From: a virus
Taxonomy: Duplodnaviria; Caudoviricetes
IMG/VR virus record: IMGVR_UViG_3300021963_000134
Location: 1-62,000 of that record
DNA: 62,000 nt
Reading direction: 5' to 3' (one strand)
Shown here: one piece after another, positions 13,818-44,000 of the stretch
How positions within the stretch are numbered: position 1 is the first letter of the stretch
Layout of the letters: the number at the start of each line of letters is the position of its first letter
Translations under genes and position numbers: made by a program
The notes under the pieces: model-generated
The model's input: only the letters and a program-made list of their open reading frames with translations
The model's database searches: none
What the model was told of the DNA's origin: nothing

Positions 13818-16800
13818 ATGGCTGAAAACTTCTGGGAAAAAGACACCGTTGCCGAGCCTGCTGGCGAATGGTGGAGCCAAGATAAGGTTGCGAAAGAGTC
13901 AGAGACGACAGCCATTTCCGACGAAGCCAAAAAGCGCACAGTCGGTGAAGCCATCAAAGATGTAGGCGCTGGACTTGTGTCCGGCGCTGGCTCTCTTGTG
14001 CAGCTTCCCGGCCAGCTCTACGGCTTGGCTACAGGCGACTTTTCTAAGACTGGAGCGCTTGGTCTTGGCGAAGACATCTCCAAATATGGTGAGGAGATGA
14101 AGTCTGCGGGTCTGAAGGCTCGGGAGGCCGAGCGTGCTGCCAAGATTCAAGAGGCAGAGAAGGAGGGCCAGTTTGCTGCGTTTAAAGCTGGTTTTGGTGA
14201 GACCATTACCGACCCTGCGCTGTTTGCATCTTTCATTGCTGAGCAAGTTCCAAACATCCTCCCGATGATTCTGACGGGCGGTGCTACTGCCGCCTTGACC
14301 GCTGGCCGAGCATCTGCTGCCGCTCTGGCAAAGGGTGCTACCAAAGAAGCTGCCGCTGACGCAGGCAAGATTGCAGCCGCCAAGGCTGGAACCACTGCCG
14401 CCGTTCAGACTGGTGCAGTCATGCAGGGCTCGGACATTGGCGCTGGGTCATACGATGAAATCTACAACGAGCTTCTTGCTCAAGGCAGGTCTGAAGAAGA
14501 AGCTGCTGCCGAGACAATCAACAAGGCCCGTGCCGCAGGTTTGACGGGTTATGGTTTTTCCCTTTTGGCAAACAAATACCTTCCCGGCGGTAAGGCTCTT
14601 GAAGAGATTCTGGCTGGCAAGAAAATTACCGGTAGCCGCATTGGCTCTGGTGTTGTAACTGGTGTCAAAGAAATCCCCAGTGAGAATATCGAGGAGGTCG
14701 GCGGTCGCATTGCGCAGAACGTTGCCGCTCAGCAGGCCGGACTTGACCGCGAACTGTTGGCTGGCACTGGAGAGACTGCCGCTCTGGCTACGCTTGGTGC
14801 CGCTGGTATTGGCGGTGCTGCTGGAGCGCTTGCGCCCCGACAAATTGGCCCAGAGCCTATTAAGACACCCGAGTCCGTAGATGCCTTCGAGAAAGAGAAG
14901 GCAGAGTTCCGCAAGCAGTTTGGCCAAGCCGAGCCTGTTGCTCCAACTGCCGAGACTGCAGAAGCACCCGTGGAGCGAGAGCCTGAGCCCGTAGAGCCCC
15001 CAACAGAGTTTCCCGGTGGCTACACAGCCACCCGCAGAGAAATCTCCCGCCAAGACGTACCTGAGTCGTTTGGCATCTTTGCCGAAGGCTCAGACAAGCC
15101 CCTGACCACTGTCTCCTCCCAAGAAGAGGTGGACAAGAAGATTCAGTCCCTGACCGAGATTCGCCAGCAAGAGCAAGAGCGTCTCATGGCAGAGGGCGAC
15201 AAGATCATGAAGCCCATCGAGGAGGCTCGCCGCAAGCTTGAGGTCATGGAGGCCACAGGCAAAGCCAATACCGATGAGTATGTGCAAGCCAAGGCGCTGC
15301 TCACTCAACAAGAGCAAGCAGCCGATGACAGGTTTGCAGAGATATTCGCCGAGATCAACAGCTACTCTGCACCCCTGACATCCGCGCCAATCGGCACTCG
15401 TACTGATGTGCAGAATGAGTTCGTCGTCAACCGTGGCAATGAGCCAATTGGGGTATTCCCAACTCTGGAGCAGGCCGAAGCCACGCTGCGCGAGCGCGAG
15501 CCAGAAGTGTTTAAACAGGCAGAGGTTGCAGCCCGCACGCAGGAGCTGGAGAAGACCCTCAAGCCTATGCTGGCCAAGTTCAACCTTGGTGATGTTGGTT
15601 TAAACATTGTTGAGAAGCTCGAGAACAACGCGGGCGGAAGTTATCTCGACAGCCTGATCCGGGTTTCGCTGGAAGAGGCCAACCCCATCCAGACCATGCG
15701 CCACGAGTCCCTGCATGCGCTGAAGGACTTGGAGTTCTTCACCCCGCAGCAATGGAATGCTCTGACTGAGCGTGCAAACAAAGATTGGCTCGTCCAACTG
15801 AAGAAGACGCCTTACGAAGAAGGCGTGTCTCGCTACGATGCGTACCTCGACATGTTTACCAAAGAGGGTCAGGCAAAAGGATTGCAAGGCCCGGAGCTGG
15901 AGCAATACGCCAACGAGGCTTTGGTTGAAGAAGCCATCGCTGATGCGTTTGGCGCTTACGACCGTGGAGCTACACCGCCTCCCGGCATGATTGCTGCGCT
16001 GTTCAAGAAGCTGAAGAACTTCTTCATGAACTTTGGCCAAGCCCTGCGCGGTGCTGGCTTTGAGTCTGCGGATGATGTATTCCAGCGCGTTGAGCGTGGT
16101 GAGTTGAAGTCCCGCAAGCCAAAGGCAGAAAAGGCCGCGCCGAAAGCGGAGTCAAAAGAGAAGCCAGAAGAGAAGGCTGAAAAACCAGAGCAGACTATGG
16201 GTGACCGCCTGAGTCTGCTGCGTAAAGCATATCCGGATGAGATCGACATCTCAACGCAAAACCCTCAAGGTGTTAAACGCATCTATGACCCCATCACTGA
16301 GATGCTGTCTATTGATGAGGCCGCTGTGCGCGAGGCCATGAAGGCCAATCCAAAGATGGCTCAAAAGACGATCCAAGCCATCAAGTCTTATGGGTTTATT
16401 CCTGACGGCACGCCAAATAATAAGGTTCTTGAGTTGTTCCGGGAAAACATTGTTAACAACTTGATGTTCTTGTACAACAAGGTTCCGGCCAGTATTCGCA
16501 ACCGCAGCAAGCTTTGGTATGACGGAGCCAACAAAATTGCCGATGAGATGGCAAACAACTACGACATGTCGCTGCGACAGATTGCTGCGATCATGGCGGC
16601 AATGTCTCCGCAAAAGGATTGGTTCCAAAACGTATCAATGGCTGAACGGGCCATTGATGTCTTGAAAAAACAAGGCGATCAGGCTTGGACGCCAGACATG
16701 CTGAAGTACGCCGAGAGCTATGTCAAAGAAACAAAAGACAGGAAAGAGCGTGAGAAGCGCCAAGATGCTTTTGAGAAGATCAAGAAAGTTGCCAAATCCG

Positions 16801-19800
16801 GAACCGTCTTGAATGACATGGACGAGAAGTCTGCCGCAGCGTTTATCCGAGCATATGACGAAGCGTTCCACTCAAGGAACTATCGTATTGTTACGCCAGA
16901 GGGTGGTTTTGGCGACTTGGTCAAGAACAATGACGGCACACCTTCCACAATGATGTGGTCAACTTACGGCCCAATTGAGAAGGCCGTCAGCATCTTCCGT
17001 GATGGAAGCCGTGAGAATGTGAGTCAGCAACTTGGCTTCGAGCACAAGATTCGTTCTTTCTACAACAACATTGCCAACCCCAACAGTGAGATTGATCACG
17101 TCACCATCGACACGCATGCCGTGGCTGCTGCGTTGTTTGAGGCTTTGGCTGGGACAGATACCGAAGTAACGCAAAACTTTGGCGGTACAGGCTCCTCTGA
17201 TGTACTTGGTGTTGGTGGCACATATGGCTTGATTGCTGATGCCTACCGAGAAGCTGCCAAGAAGGCTGGTGTTCGCGCCAGAGAGATGCAGTCCATCACT
17301 TGGGAGGCTGTCCGGGCGCTCTTCTCTGAAGAGGTCAAGTCAACCATCAAGCCAAAGATTCGCGCCGAATGGAAGAAATACAAAACCGGGCAGCAATCTT
17401 TTGACGAGACCCGCGACAACGTCTTGGAGATTGCAGGTCAACCCGATAAGCTTGATGAGCCAGACTGGATTGACTCCGGCGAAGGTCAGTTTGTGTCCGA
17501 TGGCGGCACAAGCTACGACAAGACGTTTACACCCACTGGTGGTGTTCGCCTGCGTGAATCACGAGAGATTCGTGAGAAGGTCACGTTTAACTTGTCGGCA
17601 GTAACCAACAGCATCCCGGGGCTGCGTGAGCTTTACAGCAAGGCCATGAAGGGTGATGACAAGGCTTATGAGTTGCTGCAAAAGGTTGCCGAAAGCTCCT
17701 TGCAGTATTTGCTCAAGGGCTCCGGCGCAAAGATCAAGATCGAATATTCCAAGGGAGTTTATCTTTCTGACCGTGAGCCATCAATCTCTGTCAGCGCCGC
17801 ATTTGACGAGAGCAATCAACGAGCCGTAATGGGCGCTCTTGCCAAGTTTGCAGAGAACTACAACCAGCAACAGATTCACGTCCGAGTCCCGACCATCCGT
17901 AAGCTTGGTTATGAGTTTGGAGATGGCTCTTACGCAACACCTGTGTACGAAATTCCGTTGCGCAAGAAATTGAACAACGCGCAGATTTCGGACATAATCA
18001 ATCAGACGGGTTTGCAAGGCTTCTCTGTCTCCGAGAGGCAAGTTGTTGCCGAAGGCAAGACAGTCACAGAAAACTTCTTAACCGCATACTGGGTAGCACC
18101 AAATGACATCGAACAAGAATTCGCAAGCTTCGACAGCTTCGAGCAAGCCATCCGGGCAGCACAGGCCTTGGCTGGAGTCGAGGGTTCAAAACCTAAACAA
18201 TCTGTTGAACGCCTCTACGTCTACGGCTCAGGACCGGGAGCAAGAATCTCCTACGAAGAAATACAAAGCGACATTCTTTCCCGAGACGGAACGGACACAG
18301 TCACGCCAAGGCTGATCTCCGAATACCTGAGGGGCGAACCCATAAAGGTGTTTAAACAAAAAGACCTGACCAACAAGCAGGTCGAAAGCCAGAAGCTACT
18401 GGCAAAAGTTTTTGACGAGCTCCCGACCAAGGATTTAAAGAACCCCTTGGTGCGCAGCGCTTACAACGCCTTGAACAAAGAGCTTGTACAGCAGTACAAC
18501 GCCATGCCAATCAAAGTCCAGCTTGTCGAGGGTCAGCGGGACGAGGATGGCAACTTCATTGACATCTACAAAAACAGCGCAGAGATGCGCAAAGATGTGA
18601 GTGACAACAACAGGTTCAAGGTTTACAAGACAGAGCCCGGAACATTTGGTCCTGAAGGTTTTAATTTCAAAGACCACCCGCTTTTAAAAGACTCTGGCGT
18701 CAAAGATGCAGATGGCAAAGCCATGCTGTTCAATGATGTGCTTCGCGCCGTCCACGACTACTACGCCCACAACCTTTCCGATATTCAGTTTGGCCCCAAA
18801 GGTGAGGCCGCTGCTTGGCGTAACCACATGTCCGTCACCGCCAACCCATTGGCTCGATGGGCGCTTACCGCTGAAACGCGGGCACAGAATGCGTGGCAGA
18901 ACTTCAGGGAGGGTGTAGAAGACGTTCCTCTTAAAGATCGCCCTTACGCCGATCAGAAGGCCATGCTGCCTCCAATCAACTTTACTTTTACGGGTGAAGA
19001 AGGCGTTGATCGCGTCATGGCAGACTACGCAGCAACTCTGACCCCCGAGCAGCAGCTTGGGAGCCTTCCGGCCAACAGTCAATATGCCACAGAAGTTAGA
19101 AAGCAAATGCCGAAGCTCAGCCTTCGCACGCACTTCTCATCCGTTAAGGCGGCAAAGGATGCCGCATCCGAAGCCAAAGTCCCAAAGACTGAAGAGTTTA
19201 AACGTTTCATTGCGGGCAACCAGTGGACAGATGCCGACGGAAACCCCAAGGTTTTCTATCACGCTACTGCACGAGAGTTCTTTGAGTTCACCCCCGCAGG
19301 TCAGTCGCAAGCAATCTTCTTGGCCGATACACCAGAAGAAGCCGAGACATTCGGCAGCATTGCCGAAGACCGTCTGCGCCGCGAAATCTATCGAGCCCTT
19401 GGTAAAGATGAGAAGCTAAACTTCTTCCAAAACATCGTAGATGCTCAAGTGAAGAACGGCTTCATGTCGGAAAAGCAAGGCTCTGACTTCATGCGTCAGG
19501 CCAAGCGCAAGGTTCCCGAGTACGGTGACTTTGGTGACATCGAGCAAGAGACCTACGACGCTCTGCTTGATCTGTCCCCTACCCGCATGTCAATCATGCC
19601 CCTGTACGCACGGGCAGAGACTCCATTCGAGTTCGAGAACCCAGACCATGTAGAGCAGGTCATGCAGTGGGTTGCCAACAACACAGAGTACCCTCAGGAC
19701 TTCCCAGACAAGTGGCTGGCAGGTATGAAGGGCCGCATCAAGCAGGGCCTGTGGCAAGCAATCGAAGACAAGCGTGTGCAGCAAGCTATTCGTGCCTTGG

Positions 19801-22487
19801 GGCATGACAGCTTCACCGTGCGAGAAAACCGCAACTCTCCCAAGAACTACGCCGTTTACACACCCGAGCAGGTGAAGTCTGCGACCGGTAACGTGGGCGA
19901 GTACAGCCGCGAGTCGAAGAACATCAAGTACAGCCTGCCAACCATCCCGCAAGATATTACCGACCGGATTAACGAAACTACATTTAAACGGCAGAAGAAA
20001 GGTTTTGCTGAGCGCATGATTGAAGCTATCTCTCCTCAGAGCGCCTCCAGCTTCCGGCAGCGTTACCTCAACCGCTACAACCAGATGTCGGTCTACGACA
20101 AGAAGCGAGCCGAGCAGATGGGTGGTGCAGCCCTTCTCGCAGACCAGAGCGCAGAAGCTGCGGCTTTGATGTCTGACCTTGGGGCAGGCATTGCAGCATC
20201 CGCTATGGGCATGGGGGATCGCAACGGCGGCATCCCAGTCCTTCGCAATGGCATCACGACCATCGACACCAGCGTCAAAGGAATGGTTGCCTCTCTGGCT
20301 CCTCTGGCGGCATATGGAGACCCGGTGGTCTTCCAGCAGTATCAGTACTGGGCCATGATCAAGCGCGGCGTCCGTTTAAACAAAGAAGGAAAGCTTACCG
20401 GTATCGACTCAGCCGACGTTGCATTCGCCAAGGCGTTGGAGCAGAAGTATCCAAAAGACTTGTTTGTAAACGTTCAGAAAGACTTGATCGCTTTCAACAA
20501 CGGCTTGGTCAAGTACATGGTGGATACAGGCGTTCTCTCTAAAGAACGTGCCCACGAATACACCAAGCATGCCGACTACATTCCCTTCTATCGTCAGATG
20601 GATGGGGATACGACTCTGGGGCCAAATCTCTTCCAGTCGCTGTCCGGGGTCAAGCCACCCAAGAAACTCAAAGGAAAAGACGTAGCCGAGGCTCCTCTGG
20701 CCGACTTCCTTGAGACCATGGTGCGCAACACTCAGTCAGCCATCCAAGCTGGCGTGAAGAACTACGCAGCCCAGCGAGCCATCAACGTGGCACTCCAAGT
20801 CAAAGCCCCGGGCATGGAGCTTGAGCGCTTGCCTGTGGCTTCGACAGAGCCGGATGTCATCAACGTCTTGGAAAAGGGAAAGCTTGTCTCTTACCGGACT
20901 GCGGACAGTTTGCTCATCGATGCAATGAAGAGCTTGAATCTGTCTGAGCTTCCCTTCATGGGCATTTTGTCTGCGCCAGCCGACTTGCTGCGCAACTTGG
21001 TGACCAAAGACCCCGGCTTCATGATGGCCAACTTGATGCGTGACTCAATGTCTGCGTGGGTGACTTCGGGCCAAAAAATGACTCCTATCGCAGGAACGGT
21101 CATCAACTTCGGCAAGGCTCTTACCCGCAACTCTCCCGGCTTCGAGGCCATGCTGAACGCTGGCATCATCGGCGGCTATGAGTTCAGTGCCAACGTCGAG
21201 CAGTCCGGGTTTAAACTTGAAGAGGACTTGAAACGCAAAGCGGGCAAGCGCGACGACTCCATCTTGCTTCGCCCGTTTAAATCCTTATGGGATGCGCTGG
21301 AGACCGGAACAACCGCCTCTGATGCTGCCACCCGCGCCTTGATCTACGAGCGTGTGCTGGCTGATACAGGCAACGAGGCTGAGGCCTTGTACCGATCCCT
21401 TGAAGTGATGAACTTCCACCGCAAGGGTAACTCTGCTTTGATCCGAGTGCTGACTGCCACCGTCCCGTTCTTTAATGCCCGTCTGCAGGGTTTGGATTTG
21501 TTCTACCGTGCCTCTACAGGCAACATGAACAACAAGGATGCTGCCTCTATCCAGCGTCAGTTCTTTGCCCGTGGCATGACCATGATGGCTCTGTCGGCTG
21601 CCTACTGGTTCATGGTCTCCGATGATGAGGAGTACAAGAAGCAGGAGCAGGAGACCCGGGACAACAACTGGATCATCCCAAGCTTGGGCATCCGCATCCC
21701 AATTCCTTTCGAGGTGGGTGTGTTGTTTAAAGTGATCCCTGAGCGGATTGCTGCCTACACATTCGGTGACGACACTGGGCAAGACCTGCGTGACTCCTTG
21801 TTCCGCAACGCCGTTGCCACATTTGCGTTTAACCCAACCCCGCAGATCATCAAGCCAATTGCCGAGGCTGTGGTTGACTTCAACCCGTTTACATGGCGAT
21901 CAATTGTCAGCAAGGGCATGGAGGATGTCGAGGCCAAGTATCAAGTCGGCCCAAGCACATCCGCTTTTGCAACAATGATTGCTCAAAACTTGGGTCTGTC
22001 ACCCATAAAAGTGGATCACATCATCAAGGGCTACACCGGAACCATCGGTATGTACGGCATCGACTTGATCGACATGGTCTTGGATCAGTTCGGCGACAGC
22101 CCCAAGCCAACCAAACGGTTTGAGCAGCTTCCCGTGATCAAGCGGTTTGCTCTGGATGAAGAAGCGCGGGGTTACGTCACTCAGTACTACCAGCTCAAAG
22201 ACGCAGTGGACACGACCGTCAGGACGATGAACCTGCTGGAGAAGACTGGTGAGTCAGAGGAGTATGTGAAGTACCTGACTGAGAATCAGGGGACTCTCGC
22301 CTTCAAGGACTACATCCGGGATACCGAAAAGGTCATGAAGGAATACAGGGAGATGCGCCTTGCGATTCGTTCCTCGCAGATGACTGGAGATGAGAAGCGA
22401 GACGCCCTGCTCGAGATCAGCAAAGCAGAGAGCGCCGTCACTTCCCAAATCCAGACCATCAAGAAGGCTATCGCTTCAGTCCAATAA
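13818..22487 (+). CDS. Large polyvalent (injected) protein: HExxH metallopeptidase-like, helical glycosylase-like, ADP-ribosyltransferase-like and LPD38-like domains
   Basis: 2889-aa ORF with RHESLHAL, WY..AAMSPQ..VTIDTHA, VFYHAT..IFLAD..PEQVKSATGN and C-terminal PFFNARLQG..RIPIPFE motifs. Confidence 0.7.
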   Translation: MAENFWEKDTVAEPAGEWWSQDKVAKESETTAISDEAKKRTVGEAIKDVGAGLVSGAGSLVQLPGQLYGLATGDFSKTGALGLGEDISKYGEEMKSAGLKAREAERAAKIQEAEKEGQFAAFKAGFGETITDPALFASFIAEQVPNILPMILTGGATAALTAGRASAAALAKGATKEAAADAGKIAAAKAGTTAAVQTGAVMQGSDIGAGSYDEIYNELLAQGRSEEEAAAETINKARAAGLTGYGFSLLANKYLPGGKALEEILAGKKITGSRIGSGVVTGVKEIPSENIEEVGGRIAQNVAAQQAGLDRELLAGTGETAALATLGAAGIGGAAGALAPRQIGPEPIKTPESVDAFEKEKAEFRKQFGQAEPVAPTAETAEAPVEREPEPVEPPTEFPGGYTATRREISRQDVPESFGIFAEGSDKPLTTVSSQEEVDKKIQSLTEIRQQEQERLMAEGDKIMKPIEEARRKLEVMEATGKANTDEYVQAKALLTQQEQAADDRFAEIFAEINSYSAPLTSAPIGTRTDVQNEFVVNRGNEPIGVFPTLEQAEATLREREPEVFKQAEVAARTQELEKTLKPMLAKFNLGDVGLNIVEKLENNAGGSYLDSLIRVSLEEANPIQTMRHESLHALKDLEFFTPQQWNALTERANKDWLVQLKKTPYEEGVSRYDAYLDMFTKEGQAKGLQGPELEQYANEALVEEAIADAFGAYDRGATPPPGMIAALFKKLKNFFMNFGQALRGAGFESADDVFQRVERGELKSRKPKAEKAAPKAESKEKPEEKAEKPEQTMGDRLSLLRKAYPDEIDISTQNPQGVKRIYDPITEMLSIDEAAVREAMKANPKMAQKTIQAIKSYGFIPDGTPNNKVLELFRENIVNNLMFLYNKVPASIRNRSKLWYDGANKIADEMANNYDMSLRQIAAIMAAMSPQKDWFQNVSMAERAIDVLKKQGDQAWTPDMLKYAESYVKETKDRKEREKRQDAFEKIKKVAKSGTVLNDMDEKSAAAFIRAYDEAFHSRNYRIVTPEGGFGDLVKNNDGTPSTMMWSTYGPIEKAVSIFRDGSRENVSQQLGFEHKIRSFYNNIANPNSEIDHVTIDTHAVAAALFEALAGTDTEVTQNFGGTGSSDVLGVGGTYGLIADAYREAAKKAGVRAREMQSITWEAVRALFSEEVKSTIKPKIRAEWKKYKTGQQSFDETRDNVLEIAGQPDKLDEPDWIDSGEGQFVSDGGTSYDKTFTPTGGVRLRESREIREKVTFNLSAVTNSIPGLRELYSKAMKGDDKAYELLQKVAESSLQYLLKGSGAKIKIEYSKGVYLSDREPSISVSAAFDESNQRAVMGALAKFAENYNQQQIHVRVPTIRKLGYEFGDGSYATPVYEIPLRKKLNNAQISDIINQTGLQGFSVSERQVVAEGKTVTENFLTAYWVAPNDIEQEFASFDSFEQAIRAAQALAGVEGSKPKQSVERLYVYGSGPGARISYEEIQSDILSRDGTDTVTPRLISEYLRGEPIKVFKQKDLTNKQVESQKLLAKVFDELPTKDLKNPLVRSAYNALNKELVQQYNAMPIKVQLVEGQRDEDGNFIDIYKNSAEMRKDVSDNNRFKVYKTEPGTFGPEGFNFKDHPLLKDSGVKDADGKAMLFNDVLRAVHDYYAHNLSDIQFGPKGEAAAWRNHMSVTANPLARWALTAETRAQNAWQNFREGVEDVPLKDRPYADQKAMLPPINFTFTGEEGVDRVMADYAATLTPEQQLGSLPANSQYATEVRKQMPKLSLRTHFSSVKAAKDAASEAKVPKTEEFKRFIAGNQWTDADGNPKVFYHATAREFFEFTPAGQSQAIFLADTPEEAETFGSIAEDRLRREIYRALGKDEKLNFFQNIVDAQVKNGFMSEKQGSDFMRQAKRKVPEYGDFGDIEQETYDALLDLSPTRMSIMPLYARAETPFEFENPDHVEQVMQWVANNTEYPQDFPDKWLAGMKGRIKQGLWQAIEDKRVQQAIRALGHDSFTVRENRNSPKNYAVYTPEQVKSATGNVGEYSRESKNIKYSLPTIPQDITDRINETTFKRQKKGFAERMIEAISPQSASSFRQRYLNRYNQMSVYDKKRAEQMGGAALLADQSAEAAALMSDLGAGIAASAMGMGDRNGGIPVLRNGITTIDTSVKGMVASLAPLAAYGDPVVFQQYQYWAMIKRGVRLNKEGKLTGIDSADVAFAKALEQKYPKDLFVNVQKDLIAFNNGLVKYMVDTGVLSKERAHEYTKHADYIPFYRQMDGDTTLGPNLFQSLSGVKPPKKLKGKDVAEAPLADFLETMVRNTQSAIQAGVKNYAAQRAINVALQVKAPGMELERLPVASTEPDVINVLEKGKLVSYRTADSLLIDAMKSLNLSELPFMGILSAPADLLRNLVTKDPGFMMANLMRDSMSAWVTSGQKMTPIAGTVINFGKALTRNSPGFEAMLNAGIIGGYEFSANVEQSGFKLEEDLKRKAGKRDDSILLRPFKSLWDALETGTTASDAATRALIYERVLADTGNEAEALYRSLEVMNFHRKGNSALIRVLTATVPFFNARLQGLDLFYRASTGNMNNKDAASIQRQFFARGMTMMALSAAYWFMVSDDEEYKKQEQETRDNNWIIPSLGIRIPIPFEVGVLFKVIPERIAAYTFGDDTGQDLRDSLFRNAVATFAFNPTPQIIKPIAEAVVDFNPFTWRSIVSKGMEDVEAKYQVGPSTSAFATMIAQNLGLSPIKVDHIIKGYTGTIGMYGIDLIDMVLDQFGDSPKPTKRFEQLPVIKRFALDEEARGYVTQYYQLKDAVDTTVRTMNLLEKTGESEEYVKYLTENQGTLAFKDYIRDTEKVMKEYREMRLAIRSSQMTGDEKRDALLEISKAESAVTSQIQTIKKAIASVQ

Positions 22488-42687: not shown

Positions 42688-42727
42688 GATTGCACTCCAA
42701 TGCCCGGCAGGGCATCAGGCTGGAATC
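42688..42727 (-). repeat. Intergenic hairpin, copy 1
   Basis: Minus strand GATTCCA...ATGCCC/GGGCAT...AGTGCAATC; same design as 43780-43822. Confidence 0.55.
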
Positions 42728-42980
42728 AGGGTCGGTATGCGGCATAAGAGCGGATGGGGTGTCGCCCGTTGGTGTGCTTGTCGGTGAACTGCACATCGAT
42801 GCCAGCTTTACGGGCGGCGGACATGAATTCAGACAGGTCGCAATCCTCTTCAAGGTAGGCGGTGTCGCCTCTCTGGTAGCTGTAGGTGCTGATCTTGTTG
42901 GCGATGCCCAGTGTGACCAACAGGTCACGCTTGACAGCCAGCCAGCCGTGGCCGGGGTCGGTGTAGAAGTTGAGGTTCAT
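42726..42980 (-). CDS. Conserved early phage protein
   Basis: DPGHGWLAV..YLEEDCD motif; revised start MNLNF. Confidence 0.65.
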   Translation of the reverse strand: MNLNFYTDPGHGWLAVKRDLLVTLGIANKISTYSYQRGDTAYLEEDCDLSEFMSAARKAGIDVQFTDKHTNGRHPIRSYAAYRP

Positions 42981-42997
42981 GGTTGGTCTCCAGTTGG

Positions 42998-43300
42998 TTA
43001 GAAAACGGCGAACTCTTGCAGGGCTTGCTTGGTGTCCATGCCCACAGTGGCACGGGAGATGACGTTCGACCATTCGCCCAAGGGGTTGGCGGTCAAGTCG
43101 AAGGCCAGTTTCTCCCTGTCAACCGCAGAGGTGCGGATGGCCCATTCGATTTGCTGGTGGGCGAACATAGTCCGAAGGCACACCTGCCAGTTGGTGGCGT
43201 TGGGTGTTTTGTTGAAGGCCTTTTGGGCAATGGCCAAGTTTTTCTTGATCAGGCCAGCGGCCTCGGTCAGGGTCTGCAGGGTGGCGGCATTGATGGTCAT
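42998..43300 (-). CDS. Hypothetical early protein
   Basis: Revised start MTINAAT, downstream of the hammerhead. Confidence 0.5.
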   Translation of the reverse strand: MTINAATLQTLTEAAGLIKKNLAIAQKAFNKTPNATNWQVCLRTMFAHQQIEWAIRTSAVDREKLAFDLTANPLGEWSNVISRATVGMDTKQALQEFAVF

Positions 43301-43319
43301 GGCTGGTCTCGGGTTAGTT

Positions 43320-43369
43320 GCACAAGACCCCCGGAGGGGTTTCGCCCAGTCAGGGCTCATCAGTTGTGC
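43320..43369 (-). ncRNA. Hammerhead ribozyme, type I
   Basis: GCACAA CUGAUGA GCCC UGACU GGGC GAA A CCCC UCCG GGGG UC^ UUGUGC: full catalytic core, three perfect stems, GUC cleavage triplet. Confidence 0.9.
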
Positions 43370-43563
43370 TTGCGTTGCAGGAAGGCGAGGCGGTCACGCA
43401 TGGCATCCAGTTCGGCCCAAAGCTTTTGGATGTAGGGGTGATTCAAGTCACCCTCATGCAGGGCGATGGTTGTGTGGATGTCACGCATGGCGAACTCGCA
43501 TTCGGTTGCGGTGTATCCCCGCGCCTTGTTGCGGTACAGGGCGGTCATGTCGCTGTAGTTCAT
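43360..43563 (-). CDS. Hypothetical early protein
   Basis: GGGAG RBS; stop codon lies inside the ribozyme core. Confidence 0.55.
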   Translation of the reverse strand: MNYSDMTALYRNKARGYTATECEFAMRDIHTTIALHEGDLNHPYIQKLWAELDAMRDRLAFLQRKHN

Positions 43564-43565
43564 GG

Positions 43566-43760
43566 TCAGGCTCCCTTGGTTGATGCAAGCGGCAACCAGT
43601 TGTCGGTTGCCAAGTCGGTAACCAGCAGACGGGCCAGCAAGACAACGTCTTTTTTGTCCAACAACAGGGAGGCAAAGGGGTGCTTGATGTCATAGGCCAG
43701 CACGGCACGGGCGTTGGCATCGGTGGGGTTTGCACGGTAGCGATCGATGAGTTTTTGCAT
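43566..43760 (-). CDS. Hypothetical early protein (first in operon)
   Basis: GGAGAG RBS before MQKLIDR. Confidence 0.55.
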   Translation of the reverse strand: MQKLIDRYRANPTDANARAVLAYDIKHPFASLLLDKKDVVLLARLLVTDLATDNWLPLASTKGA

Positions 43761-43779
43761 GGTCTCTCCAGTAGTGCGG

Positions 43780-43822
43780 GATTGCACTGCGAAGCCCACA
43801 GCGTGGGCTTAACGGTGGAATC
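43780..43822 (-). repeat. Intergenic hairpin, copy 2
   Basis: Minus strand GATTCCA...AAGCCCAC/GTGGGCTT...AGTGCAATC. Confidence 0.55.
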
Positions 43823-43970
43823 TCATGGGGGATTTTTTATCTACCGTCACGGTGGACAGGTACAGGGCTTGAACCCTGTCTGACTTGCTCCCAAGCTTCC
43901 CTTGGGTTTCGCCTCAGACCGACCGTATCGTGGGCCGTTCACATCAGCACTATTGCTAGTGCATGGACGA

Positions 43971-44000
43971 ATCATATCACTAGTGTTTAAACAGTGTCAA
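43971..44000 (-). promoter_or_regulatory. Strong sigma-70 early promoter
   Basis: Minus strand TTGACA-N18-TATGAT with TG extension; GTTTAAAC in the spacer. Confidence 0.75.

Follow-up and report, generated by a model that had tools for sequence, protein, structure and literature searches.

Hammerhead ribozymes cleave RNA 3' of nucleotide H17, which gives a 2',3'-cyclic phosphate and a 5'-hydroxyl end. In type I hammerheads of the Schistosoma kind, a tertiary contact is formed between loop II and a bulge in stem I. Two systems are comparable by effect: the RNase III processing sites in the early transcript of phage T7, at which cuts between the early cistrons of a host-transcribed mRNA leave 3'-hydroxyl and 5'-phosphate ends, and RiboJ, a synthetic insulator engineered from a type III satellite-RNA hammerhead with an added hairpin, which trims the upstream RNA to provide a constant 5' leader. 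In phages, hammerheads have been known since the study of Perreault et al. (2011; PLoS Comput Biol, PMC3088659). There, prophage hammerheads flanking single genes cleaved in vitro within native polycistronic fragments, those of Agrobacterium tumefaciens cleaved also after cloning and in vivo transcription, and it was proposed that long phage transcripts are processed into gene-length mRNAs. A 2026 paper describes type I motifs as the usual form in bacterial and phage DNA, and a review from 2019 considered the purpose of phage hammerheads still unresolved, as did Perreault et al. and the preliminary description of the locus analyzed here. This locus lies in IMGVR_UViG_3300021963_000134, a complete IMG/VR virus record (Caudoviricetes) of 62,000 bases that is rated 100% complete and represents an uncultured aquatic phage, relatives of which occur in freshwater and estuaries; the whole record was analyzed and is referred to as the window. 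Its minus strand carries a 50-nucleotide (nt) element between two small genes, termed genes 2 and 3. We consider the element likely to be a true type I hammerhead that cuts itself constitutively within a leftward polycistronic mRNA, where it would uncouple the two cistrons.

The element reads GCACAA-CUGAUGA-GCCC(UGACU)GGGC-GAAA-CCCC(UCCG)GGGG-UC/UUGUGC on the minus strand (slash, predicted cut; coordinates in Table 1). All three stems are perfectly Watson-Crick paired, and the hammerhead is of type I because stems II and III are capped by loops and stem I is open. By the structural criteria of Perreault et al. (2011), the element is a hammerhead. Its core nucleotides C3 U4 G5 A6 N7 G8 A9, G12 A13 A14, A15.1, U16.1, and H17 are unmutated, and the core-adjacent pairs 10.1-11.1, 1.1-2.1, and 15.1-16.1 are standard in all stems (G43356-C43344, A43364-U43325, and A43340-U43327, respectively). 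The stems of 6, 4, and 4 (+1) base pairs (bp) contain no multiple mispairs or bulges and have covariation support, and stem I opens toward the flanks, with stems II and III closed by loops. The minus-strand sequence from 43369 to 43320 thus confirmed what the preliminary description had reported, namely, a complete core, perfect stems I to III, and a UCCG tetraloop on the coding strand, which is also the strand of the flanking genes. Its coordinates for the predicted cut, between 43326 and 43325 and 25 nt (43325..43301) before the ATG at 43300, were likewise right.

A motif of this quality is not expected by chance. We scanned both strands of the whole window with our own type I descriptor and used 300 dinucleotide-preserving shuffles as a control. 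With stems of at least 6/4/4 bp, one site was found in the window versus none in the 300 shuffles; at 4/3/3 bp or more, all shuffles together contained 3 sites, and at 3/2/2 bp or more, 26 sites. Our own covariance model, R1, gave the element a score of 79.2 bits, a value to be read with the element being itself part of the R1 training set, and the R1 scan revealed no second copy in the window, where the next best match scored 14 bits.

Comparison with relatives strengthened this assignment. A search with the gene 2 protein matched six viral loci, and real homologues (49 to 92% identity) were present in five viral contigs. The same hammerhead was found at four of the five real homologous junctions (loci L006 to L009), directly after the gene 2 homologue; the remaining locus of the six, L011, was a 13-residue match and had no hammerhead. 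A search with the gene 3 protein retrieved a further locus (L012), in which the ribozyme precedes the gene 3 homologue and follows a different gene. In the relatives, stem II read GCCC/GGGC, GUCC/GGAC, GGCC/GGCC, or GACC/GGUC, and stem I either GCACAA/UUGUGC or GCAUGA/UCAUGC, and these stem changes are compensatory, as expected for a functional RNA. The sole core change among the homologous loci was a U to C at the free position N7. Among the 40 best-supported of 96 differences seen at the DNA level in related metagenome contigs, one fell inside 43320..43369, at position 43334 in loop III. The contigs came from three DNA runs and one tentatively labelled RNA but marked as probably DNA; among runs recorded as RNA, none was listed as containing 42700..43900. 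The pattern persisted in an alignment of 95 of the 97 family sequences (the two excluded were L071 copies whose stem III carries long insertions). In this alignment, both sides had changed in 13 of the 16 pairs, the covariation score was 0.506 compared with 0.110 in shuffles (0 of 500 reached 0.506) and at most 0.069 in slid registers, and all catalytic-core positions were invariant, with only N7 varying.

Two patterns that fix only part of the element were used to collect further members. In pattern 1, the fixed positions were the core, the outer portions of stem II, and GAAACCCC, and free variation was allowed in stem I, in two of the stem II pairs, in loop II, and in the stem III 3' strand. 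It occurred in 94 stretches of IMG/VR, and 79 of the 86 distinct matches completed a full type I hammerhead. The search of 596 Gb of bacterial and archaeal genomes, which served as a negative control for this pattern, gave 22 matches, of which one was a complete hammerhead and a second nearly so. Pattern 2 fixed the 5' half only (A-G, the core, the stem II ends, U.A.U in loop II, and GAAAC) and was found in at least 132 stretches of viral contigs; among the matches listed, 139 of 142 distinct ones completed a hammerhead, with C17 in 135 and A17 in 4. These half-site completion counts are unbiased tests of hammerhead conservation. Taken together, the comparative data much strengthen the view, supported already by the sequence, that the coding strand carries a complete type I hammerhead at this site, and the element is very probably a real ribozyme. 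Both cellular matches with a hammerhead or near-hammerhead were located in one Nitrosopumilus metagenome-assembled genome (OY759726.1; L114 and L128), 1.66 Mb apart in the archaeal chromosome. They have near-identical flanks; one is a complete type I member of the subfamily, and in the other a non-pairing A replaces U16.1, adjacent to the cleavage site.

The members form a subfamily with marked sequence constraints around stem I. This stem is 6 bp long in nearly all of them, and among 96 distinct members its closing pair was G(-6) in 96 and C(+6) in 93, flanked by A(-7) in 96, A(+7) in 89, and A(+8) in 75. In the pattern 2 set, among the matches listed, A(+7) was present in 139 of 139 and AA at +7/+8 in 109 of 139. 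Loop II follows the consensus U-R-A-N-U (U1 in 90/90, A3 in 83/90, and U5 in 86/90). The element of the window bears every one of these marks: A43370, G43369 paired with C43320, A43319 and A43318, and the loop UGACU. From this conservation we infer that loop II may dock by non-Watson-Crick contacts on the end of stem I (A-G...C-A-A). The subfamily resembles the Schistosoma kind in its type I layout, its 4-bp stem II (GUCC/GGAC in many members), and an unpaired purine-rich interruption 5 to 6 bp from the core; however, its stem I stops after 6 bp and has no distal helix holding a bulge, and its loop II is the 5-nt U-R-A-N-U. In Rfam clan CL00010, the best-matching hammerhead model, HH9, shares the type I topology, the 4-bp stem II, the short stem III, and a core that aligns column for column, whereas its distal stem I (positions 1 to 10 and 64 to 77) has no counterpart in the window element.

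Like the phage and prophage hammerheads of Perreault et al. (2011), the subfamily has a canonical core, lies between co-oriented small phage genes with variable neighbors, occurs as clustered copies in relatives, and invites the same proposal of transcript cutting. In the window, co-oriented phage genes are found on both sides, the neighbors are not constant among relatives, and terminase and portal genes are present. The differences from the hammerheads in the consulted parts of that paper are a stem I of constant length (6 bp) between invariant A-G...C-A flanks, the lack of a pseudoknot, the single copy in the window in place of several hammerheads near single genes or short blocks, and a distribution that is nearly devoid of cellular genomes (1 complete among 22) but common in environmental viral contigs. 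Clusters do occur elsewhere in the subfamily: five complete viral genomes of 62 to 67 kb carry 1, 3, 3, 2, and 1 copies, clustered within approximately 2.3 kb, and some contigs carry up to five.

Members were also identified in cultured phages. The T7-like pelagiphage HTVC142P has one copy (R1, 47.7 bits) approximately 0.65 kb from its left end, between gp3 and gp4, with the gp3 stop codon inside stem I, and the T7-like pelagiphage Eistla EXVC025P has two (R1, 48 and 46.6 bits) upstream of its RNA polymerase gene. A third phage, HTVC031P, gave a partial BLAST match and probably carries a member as well. The blastn searches of cultured phages with 42700..43900 of the window gave no match, and neither did blastn with the family member L017. 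Matches of a 72-nt element query to Streptomyces phages were not counted as hammerheads, their cores being non-canonical (CUGAACGG and CUGACGUG) and their R1 score 18 bits. In Streptomyces phage Loofah (PQ244019.1; L130), these hammerhead-like motifs are located at 1198-1235 and 1495-1562 (cores CUGACGUG and CUGAACGG), share the stem III CCCCUUCGGGGG and GAAAC, and occupy positions between small genes that follow an OCR-like antirestriction gene; similar BLAST matches exist in many Streptomyces phages (35 records), and these motifs may represent a variant core or a decayed ribozyme. A second ribozyme class was observed in L041, a viral contig of 59.9 kb, which contains a pistol ribozyme (RF02679; 54.9 bits, threshold 34.5) at 2259-2323 on the plus strand, approximately 0.7 kb downstream of a subfamily hammerhead, so that two ribozyme classes are present in one phage gene block.

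The position of the hammerhead relative to the flanking genes was analyzed across the family. For the upstream side, 92 members had enough flanking sequence, and the upstream open reading frame (ORF) was taken heuristically as the frame with the longest open upstream stretch. This ORF ended within -15 to +11 of the core start in 87 of the 92. The stop was the first core UGA in 20 and the UGA of loop II in 15. In 11 members it fell within the final 3 nt of stem I, in 20 it overlapped the invariant A-G (offsets -8 and -9), in 21 it lay 10 to 15 nt before the core, and in 5 it was elsewhere. In the window, the stop is the first core UGA, as the preliminary description had stated: the ORF of gene 2 terminates at 43362..43360, which are nt 2 to 4 of the core, and its final codons form the 5' strand of stem I. 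This is the commonest single case but not a rule, and the proposal, made in the same description, that cleavage is coupled to translation termination found no support as a general principle, since the first core UGA serves as the stop in only 20 of the 92 members. Because the stop position varies among members, the overlap looks like tight packing that uses the stops the ribozyme happens to offer. On the downstream side, the first ATG that opens an ORF followed the cut at a median of 26 nt (25 to 28 nt in 56 of 91 members and 20 to 32 nt in 75 of 91), a Shine-Dalgarno (SD)-like motif preceded this ATG in 68 of the 90 members having one, and each of the positions +7 to +14 was a G in only 0 to 8 of 96 sequences. 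The stop and start spacing together with the G-poor spacer therefore define a unit, [stop]-[ribozyme]-[G-poor spacer]-[SD]-[start], which fills the whole intergenic space.

If the element cleaves as predicted, the transcribed 50-nt RNA would fold locally and cut itself after C17 (43326). Given the type I layout and a cut 37 nt after the stop codon, gene 2 would keep its stop and gain a folded 3' end: the upstream message would close with the compactly folded ribozyme and a terminal 2',3'-cyclic phosphate. The message of gene 3 would begin with a 5'-hydroxyl and a short, G-poor, unstructured leader of 25 nt bearing the ribosome-binding site. The two cistrons would thereby be uncoupled, each with its own stability and with a standard translation-start context irrespective of the upstream sequence. 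By effect, this arrangement is like the T7 RNase III sites, with a structured 3' end upstream, a short leader downstream, and members in the early region of T7-like pelagiphages; unlike these sites, the reaction would be self-catalyzed, require no host enzyme, and produce a 2',3'-cyclic phosphate and a 5'-hydroxyl, and there is no relationship in sequence or fold. It is similarly like RiboJ in placing a hammerhead ahead of a ribosome-binding site, but the phage element is natural, of type I, and would leave an unstructured leader.

Several observations weigh against this interpretation. At the fifth homologous junction (L010; 49% identity), the genes overlap and no ribozyme is present. The four nearest cultured phages by terminase (51 to 59% identity), which are DSL-LC04, the Pelagibacter phages HTVC027P and HTVC023P, and 023Pt_psg01, gave no R1 match, and in one related contig from freshwater, 42733 is linked to 43834 by 14 different letters, so that genes 1 to 4 and the ribozyme are missing. 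As this contig skips it, the block of approximately 1.1 kb from 42733 to 43834 is accessory, and, judging from L010, the terminase relatives, and the skipping contig, the element is dispensable. Part of the apparent pairing in the alignment (97.8%) is built in, because the scan that chose its rows demanded pairing. Moreover, neither a Watson-Crick pseudoknot nor a distal stem I helix was detected (mutual information between loop II and the flanks, at most 0.23 bit), so that the case for a tertiary contact allowing fast cleavage at cellular Mg2+ comes solely from the conserved nucleotides. For RNAs of 50 and 72 nt, the minimum-free-energy structure was the hammerhead fold; however, in contexts of 111 and 201 nt, other folds were 1 to 3 kcal/mol lower, and the ensemble probability of the hammerhead helices was 0.06 and 0.015, respectively. 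The 91-nt fold was not more stable than shuffles (z = -0.34). Such fold energies say little in either direction for a small ribozyme with an unpaired core. In the longer folds, the SD-like GAGACC pairs with GGUCU(U) across the cleavage site (43307-43331, minus strand). The AGACC is present in L008 and L009 and not in L006 or L007, and this pairing is possibly an alternative fold that hides the ribosome site, or due to chance.

The curated models of Rfam also failed to recognize the element. The preliminary description had suggested these models as a check, and this check turned out negative: at gathering thresholds there was no match across the window, including the hammerhead families RF02275, RF00163, RF00008, RF02276, RF02277, and RF03152. 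The best match in a permissive search of 201 nt was Hammerhead_HH9 (RF02275), with 23.5 bits against a threshold of 52 (E = 6.8e-4) and an alignment that runs through the core and all three stems; the RAGATH-1 hammerhead followed with 15.9 bits (threshold, 56.3), and Hammerhead_1 (RF00163) had no match at E of 10 or below. Since the gathering thresholds were not reached, the element is not a member by the curated scores of Rfam. None of the 43 descriptor-positive hammerheads in 20 related loci reached any Rfam threshold either, and the sub-threshold scores show only the limit of the models.

Considering these points, we weighed other explanations for the conservation of the element. An inactive relic or chance look-alike, non-cleaving and at most a pair of hairpins, would agree with the Rfam scores, the lack of an extended stem I or pseudoknot, and the ordinary fold stability. 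It is nevertheless very unlikely, in view of the complete absence of equal motifs from the 300 shuffles, the invariant core and covarying stems across 95 sequences, the completion of free halves in 79 of 86 cases and, among the matches listed, in 139 of 142, and the single loop III difference among the 40 best-supported of 96 in the metagenome contigs. An even more improbable alternative is the formation of circular or spliced RNA through two hammerhead cuts followed by ligation. Relatives with 2 to 5 copies that have an identical stem I and are spaced by 250 to 850 nt would suit such a process, and after a type I cut the 5' fragment retains both the catalytic body and the cyclic phosphate, as ligation needs (PMC3088659). 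According to that study, though, spliced or circular products were sought and none was found, and circularization cannot apply in the window because it has only one copy. Translation might, on the other hand, gate cleavage. A terminating ribosome shields approximately 12 to 15 nt downstream of the stop; by inference, it would transiently block stem I. Ribosomes finishing gene 2 would then cover stem I and the core, the cut would occur only when gene 2 is untranslated, and processing would be tied to upstream translation. The overlap of gene 2 with stem I and the core speaks for this model, as does an overlap of the upstream stop with the element (offsets -9 to +11) in 66 of 92 members. We regard it as unlikely, since the stops span -15 to +11, use three sites in conserved sequence or a separate upstream one, and lie 10 to 15 nt ahead of the core in 21 of 92 members, which fits genome compaction better than a tuned mechanism.

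More consideration is due to the possibility that hammerhead, A-rich leader, and ribosome-binding site form a portable junction cassette, a mobile intergenic module whose repeated sequence of ~50 nt serves mainly at the DNA level as a recombination point where small early genes would be acquired, lost, or exchanged within and between phage lineages, with cleavage keeping each newly gained gene expressible. Where relatives share the downstream synteny (SprT-like and AAA genes), the gene ahead of the hammerhead is gene 1, gene 2, or another one, the gene 1 cases (query 43566..43759) being DNA-level similarities that serve as positional markers only; the gene behind it is gene 3, gene 4, or one of two further, unrelated genes. 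In L007, two hammerhead copies bracket an additional gene, copies in the same genome are often near-identical in stems I and III (three in L017; five of two types in L020), and the subfamily is shared by the ~60-kb phages and the T7-like pelagiphages. For several contigs from other metagenomes, the match to the window is confined to the hammerhead and has loose ends at 43307, 43315, 43318, and 43367, and the contig depth peaks in the bin 43315-43355. Yet the single copy in the window leaves no internal partner for recombination, hammerhead-only matches are expected anyway for the most conserved 50 nt, and a DNA-level role alone leaves the invariance of the catalytic nucleotides unexplained. 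We therefore consider this explanation possible but doubtful. A broader idea, which we find rather unlikely but worth stating, combines it with the RNA-level function: the subfamily would be a self-contained, lineage-hopping "plug-in" junction for phage early operons, through which new genes are expressed wherever they have landed. Its unit of approximately 75 nt would offer stops in two frames, one from the UGA of the core and one from that of loop II, and an RNA cut that does not depend on the host. It would also protect the upstream message by a 3' fold and provide a standard, unstructured leader that includes a ribosome-binding site, with the next start a median of 26 nt after the cut, and its repeated DNA would drive the shuffling of early genes. 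If true, such a unit would be nature's equivalent of the synthetic ribozyme insulators and would take the place of T7-type RNase III sites.

The preferred reading, a self-cleaving hammerhead that separates the messages of genes 2 and 3, has consequences beyond this junction. In this phage, expression of the leftward operon probably proceeds through messages that are processed separately, a point relevant to the annotation of its small genes and to predicting their expression. The element itself is an ordinary example of a kind known in phages since 2011. What may be new is the delimitation of the subfamily with its invariant stem I clamp, its invisibility at Rfam thresholds, and its presence in cultured pelagiphages; a literature search, with most subscription journals outside its reach, found no publication on the subfamily or on hammerheads in pelagiphages. 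Within aquatic phages, the subfamily is large and sharply defined by three marks, namely, a 6-bp stem I clamped by A-G...C-A-A, a U-R-A-N-U loop II, and a start codon at a median of 26 nt past the cut. Because Rfam thresholds miss it entirely, R1 or a curated covariance model would improve annotation. The cultured pelagiphages with members (HTVC142P, Eistla EXVC025P, and probably HTVC031P) offer a tractable system in which to ask what purpose hammerheads serve in phages, a question of long standing.

Table 1. Positions of the hammerhead, its parts, and the adjoining features in the window
Feature	Position	Strand	Details
Type I hammerhead ribozyme	43369..43320	minus	Sequence, covariation in relatives, covariance model R1
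Stem I	43369..43364 with 43325..43320	minus	5' strand GCACAA pairs with 3' strand UUGUGC; 6 bp
Core CUGAUGA	43363..43357	minus	Sequence
Stem-loop II	43356..43344	minus	GCCC/GGGC, loop UGACU; 4 bp
GAAA	43343..43340	minus	Sequence
Stem-loop III	43339..43328	minus	CCCC/GGGG, loop UCCG; 4 bp, plus pair A43340-U43327
U16.1	43327	minus	
C17	43326	minus	Predicted cut between 43326 and 43325
Unpaired A 5' of stem I	43370	minus	Invariant in subfamily; candidate tertiary-contact nucleotide (putative role)
Unpaired AA 3' of stem I	43318..43319	minus	Conserved in subfamily; candidate tertiary-contact site (putative role)
Promoter-like site	44000..43971	minus	TTGACA-18-TATGAT, TG present; 11/12 consensus matches only; candidate start of hammerhead transcript
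Gene 1	43760..43566	minus	64 aa, ATG at 43760; first ORF of leftward operon
Gene 2	43563..43360	minus	67 aa, no known family; ORF listing
Leader after predicted cleavage	43325..43301	minus	25 nt: UUGUGC + AACUAACCC + SD-like GAGA (43310..43307) + 6 nt
Gene 3	43300..42998	minus	100 aa, no known family; ATG at 43300

The hammerhead follows the second ORF below the promoter-like site, gene 2 beginning 2 nt after gene 1, and no terminator-like site was found on the minus strand between that site and the hammerhead. The preliminary description had spoken of the first early genes. This order agrees with the position in that claim, as do the pelagiphage members, which lie among small genes close to the left end or ahead of the RNA polymerase gene; the early timing is a plausible guess made from gene order. 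For gene 3, a longer ORF starting at the core AUG (43360) was considered and rejected, because the core of L008 is CUGACGA, which lacks this AUG, and because the conserved SD-like motif is placed ahead of the downstream ATG. Downstream of the hammerhead lie four small ORFs without known family, followed by a SprT-like protein, an AAA_5/CobS-like ATPase, and a VWA/CobT-like protein. The leader of approximately 200 nt between the promoter-like site and gene 1 (43761-43964, minus strand) contains a T-arm-like stretch, CAGGGUUCAAGCCCUG; ARAGORN detected no tRNA in it, and a search of Rfam gave nothing at E of 1 or below. The opposite strand encodes the small terminase, a LexA-like DNA-binding protein, the large terminase, and the portal, and its structural arm includes a single ORF of 2889 aa at 13818-22487 (plus strand).

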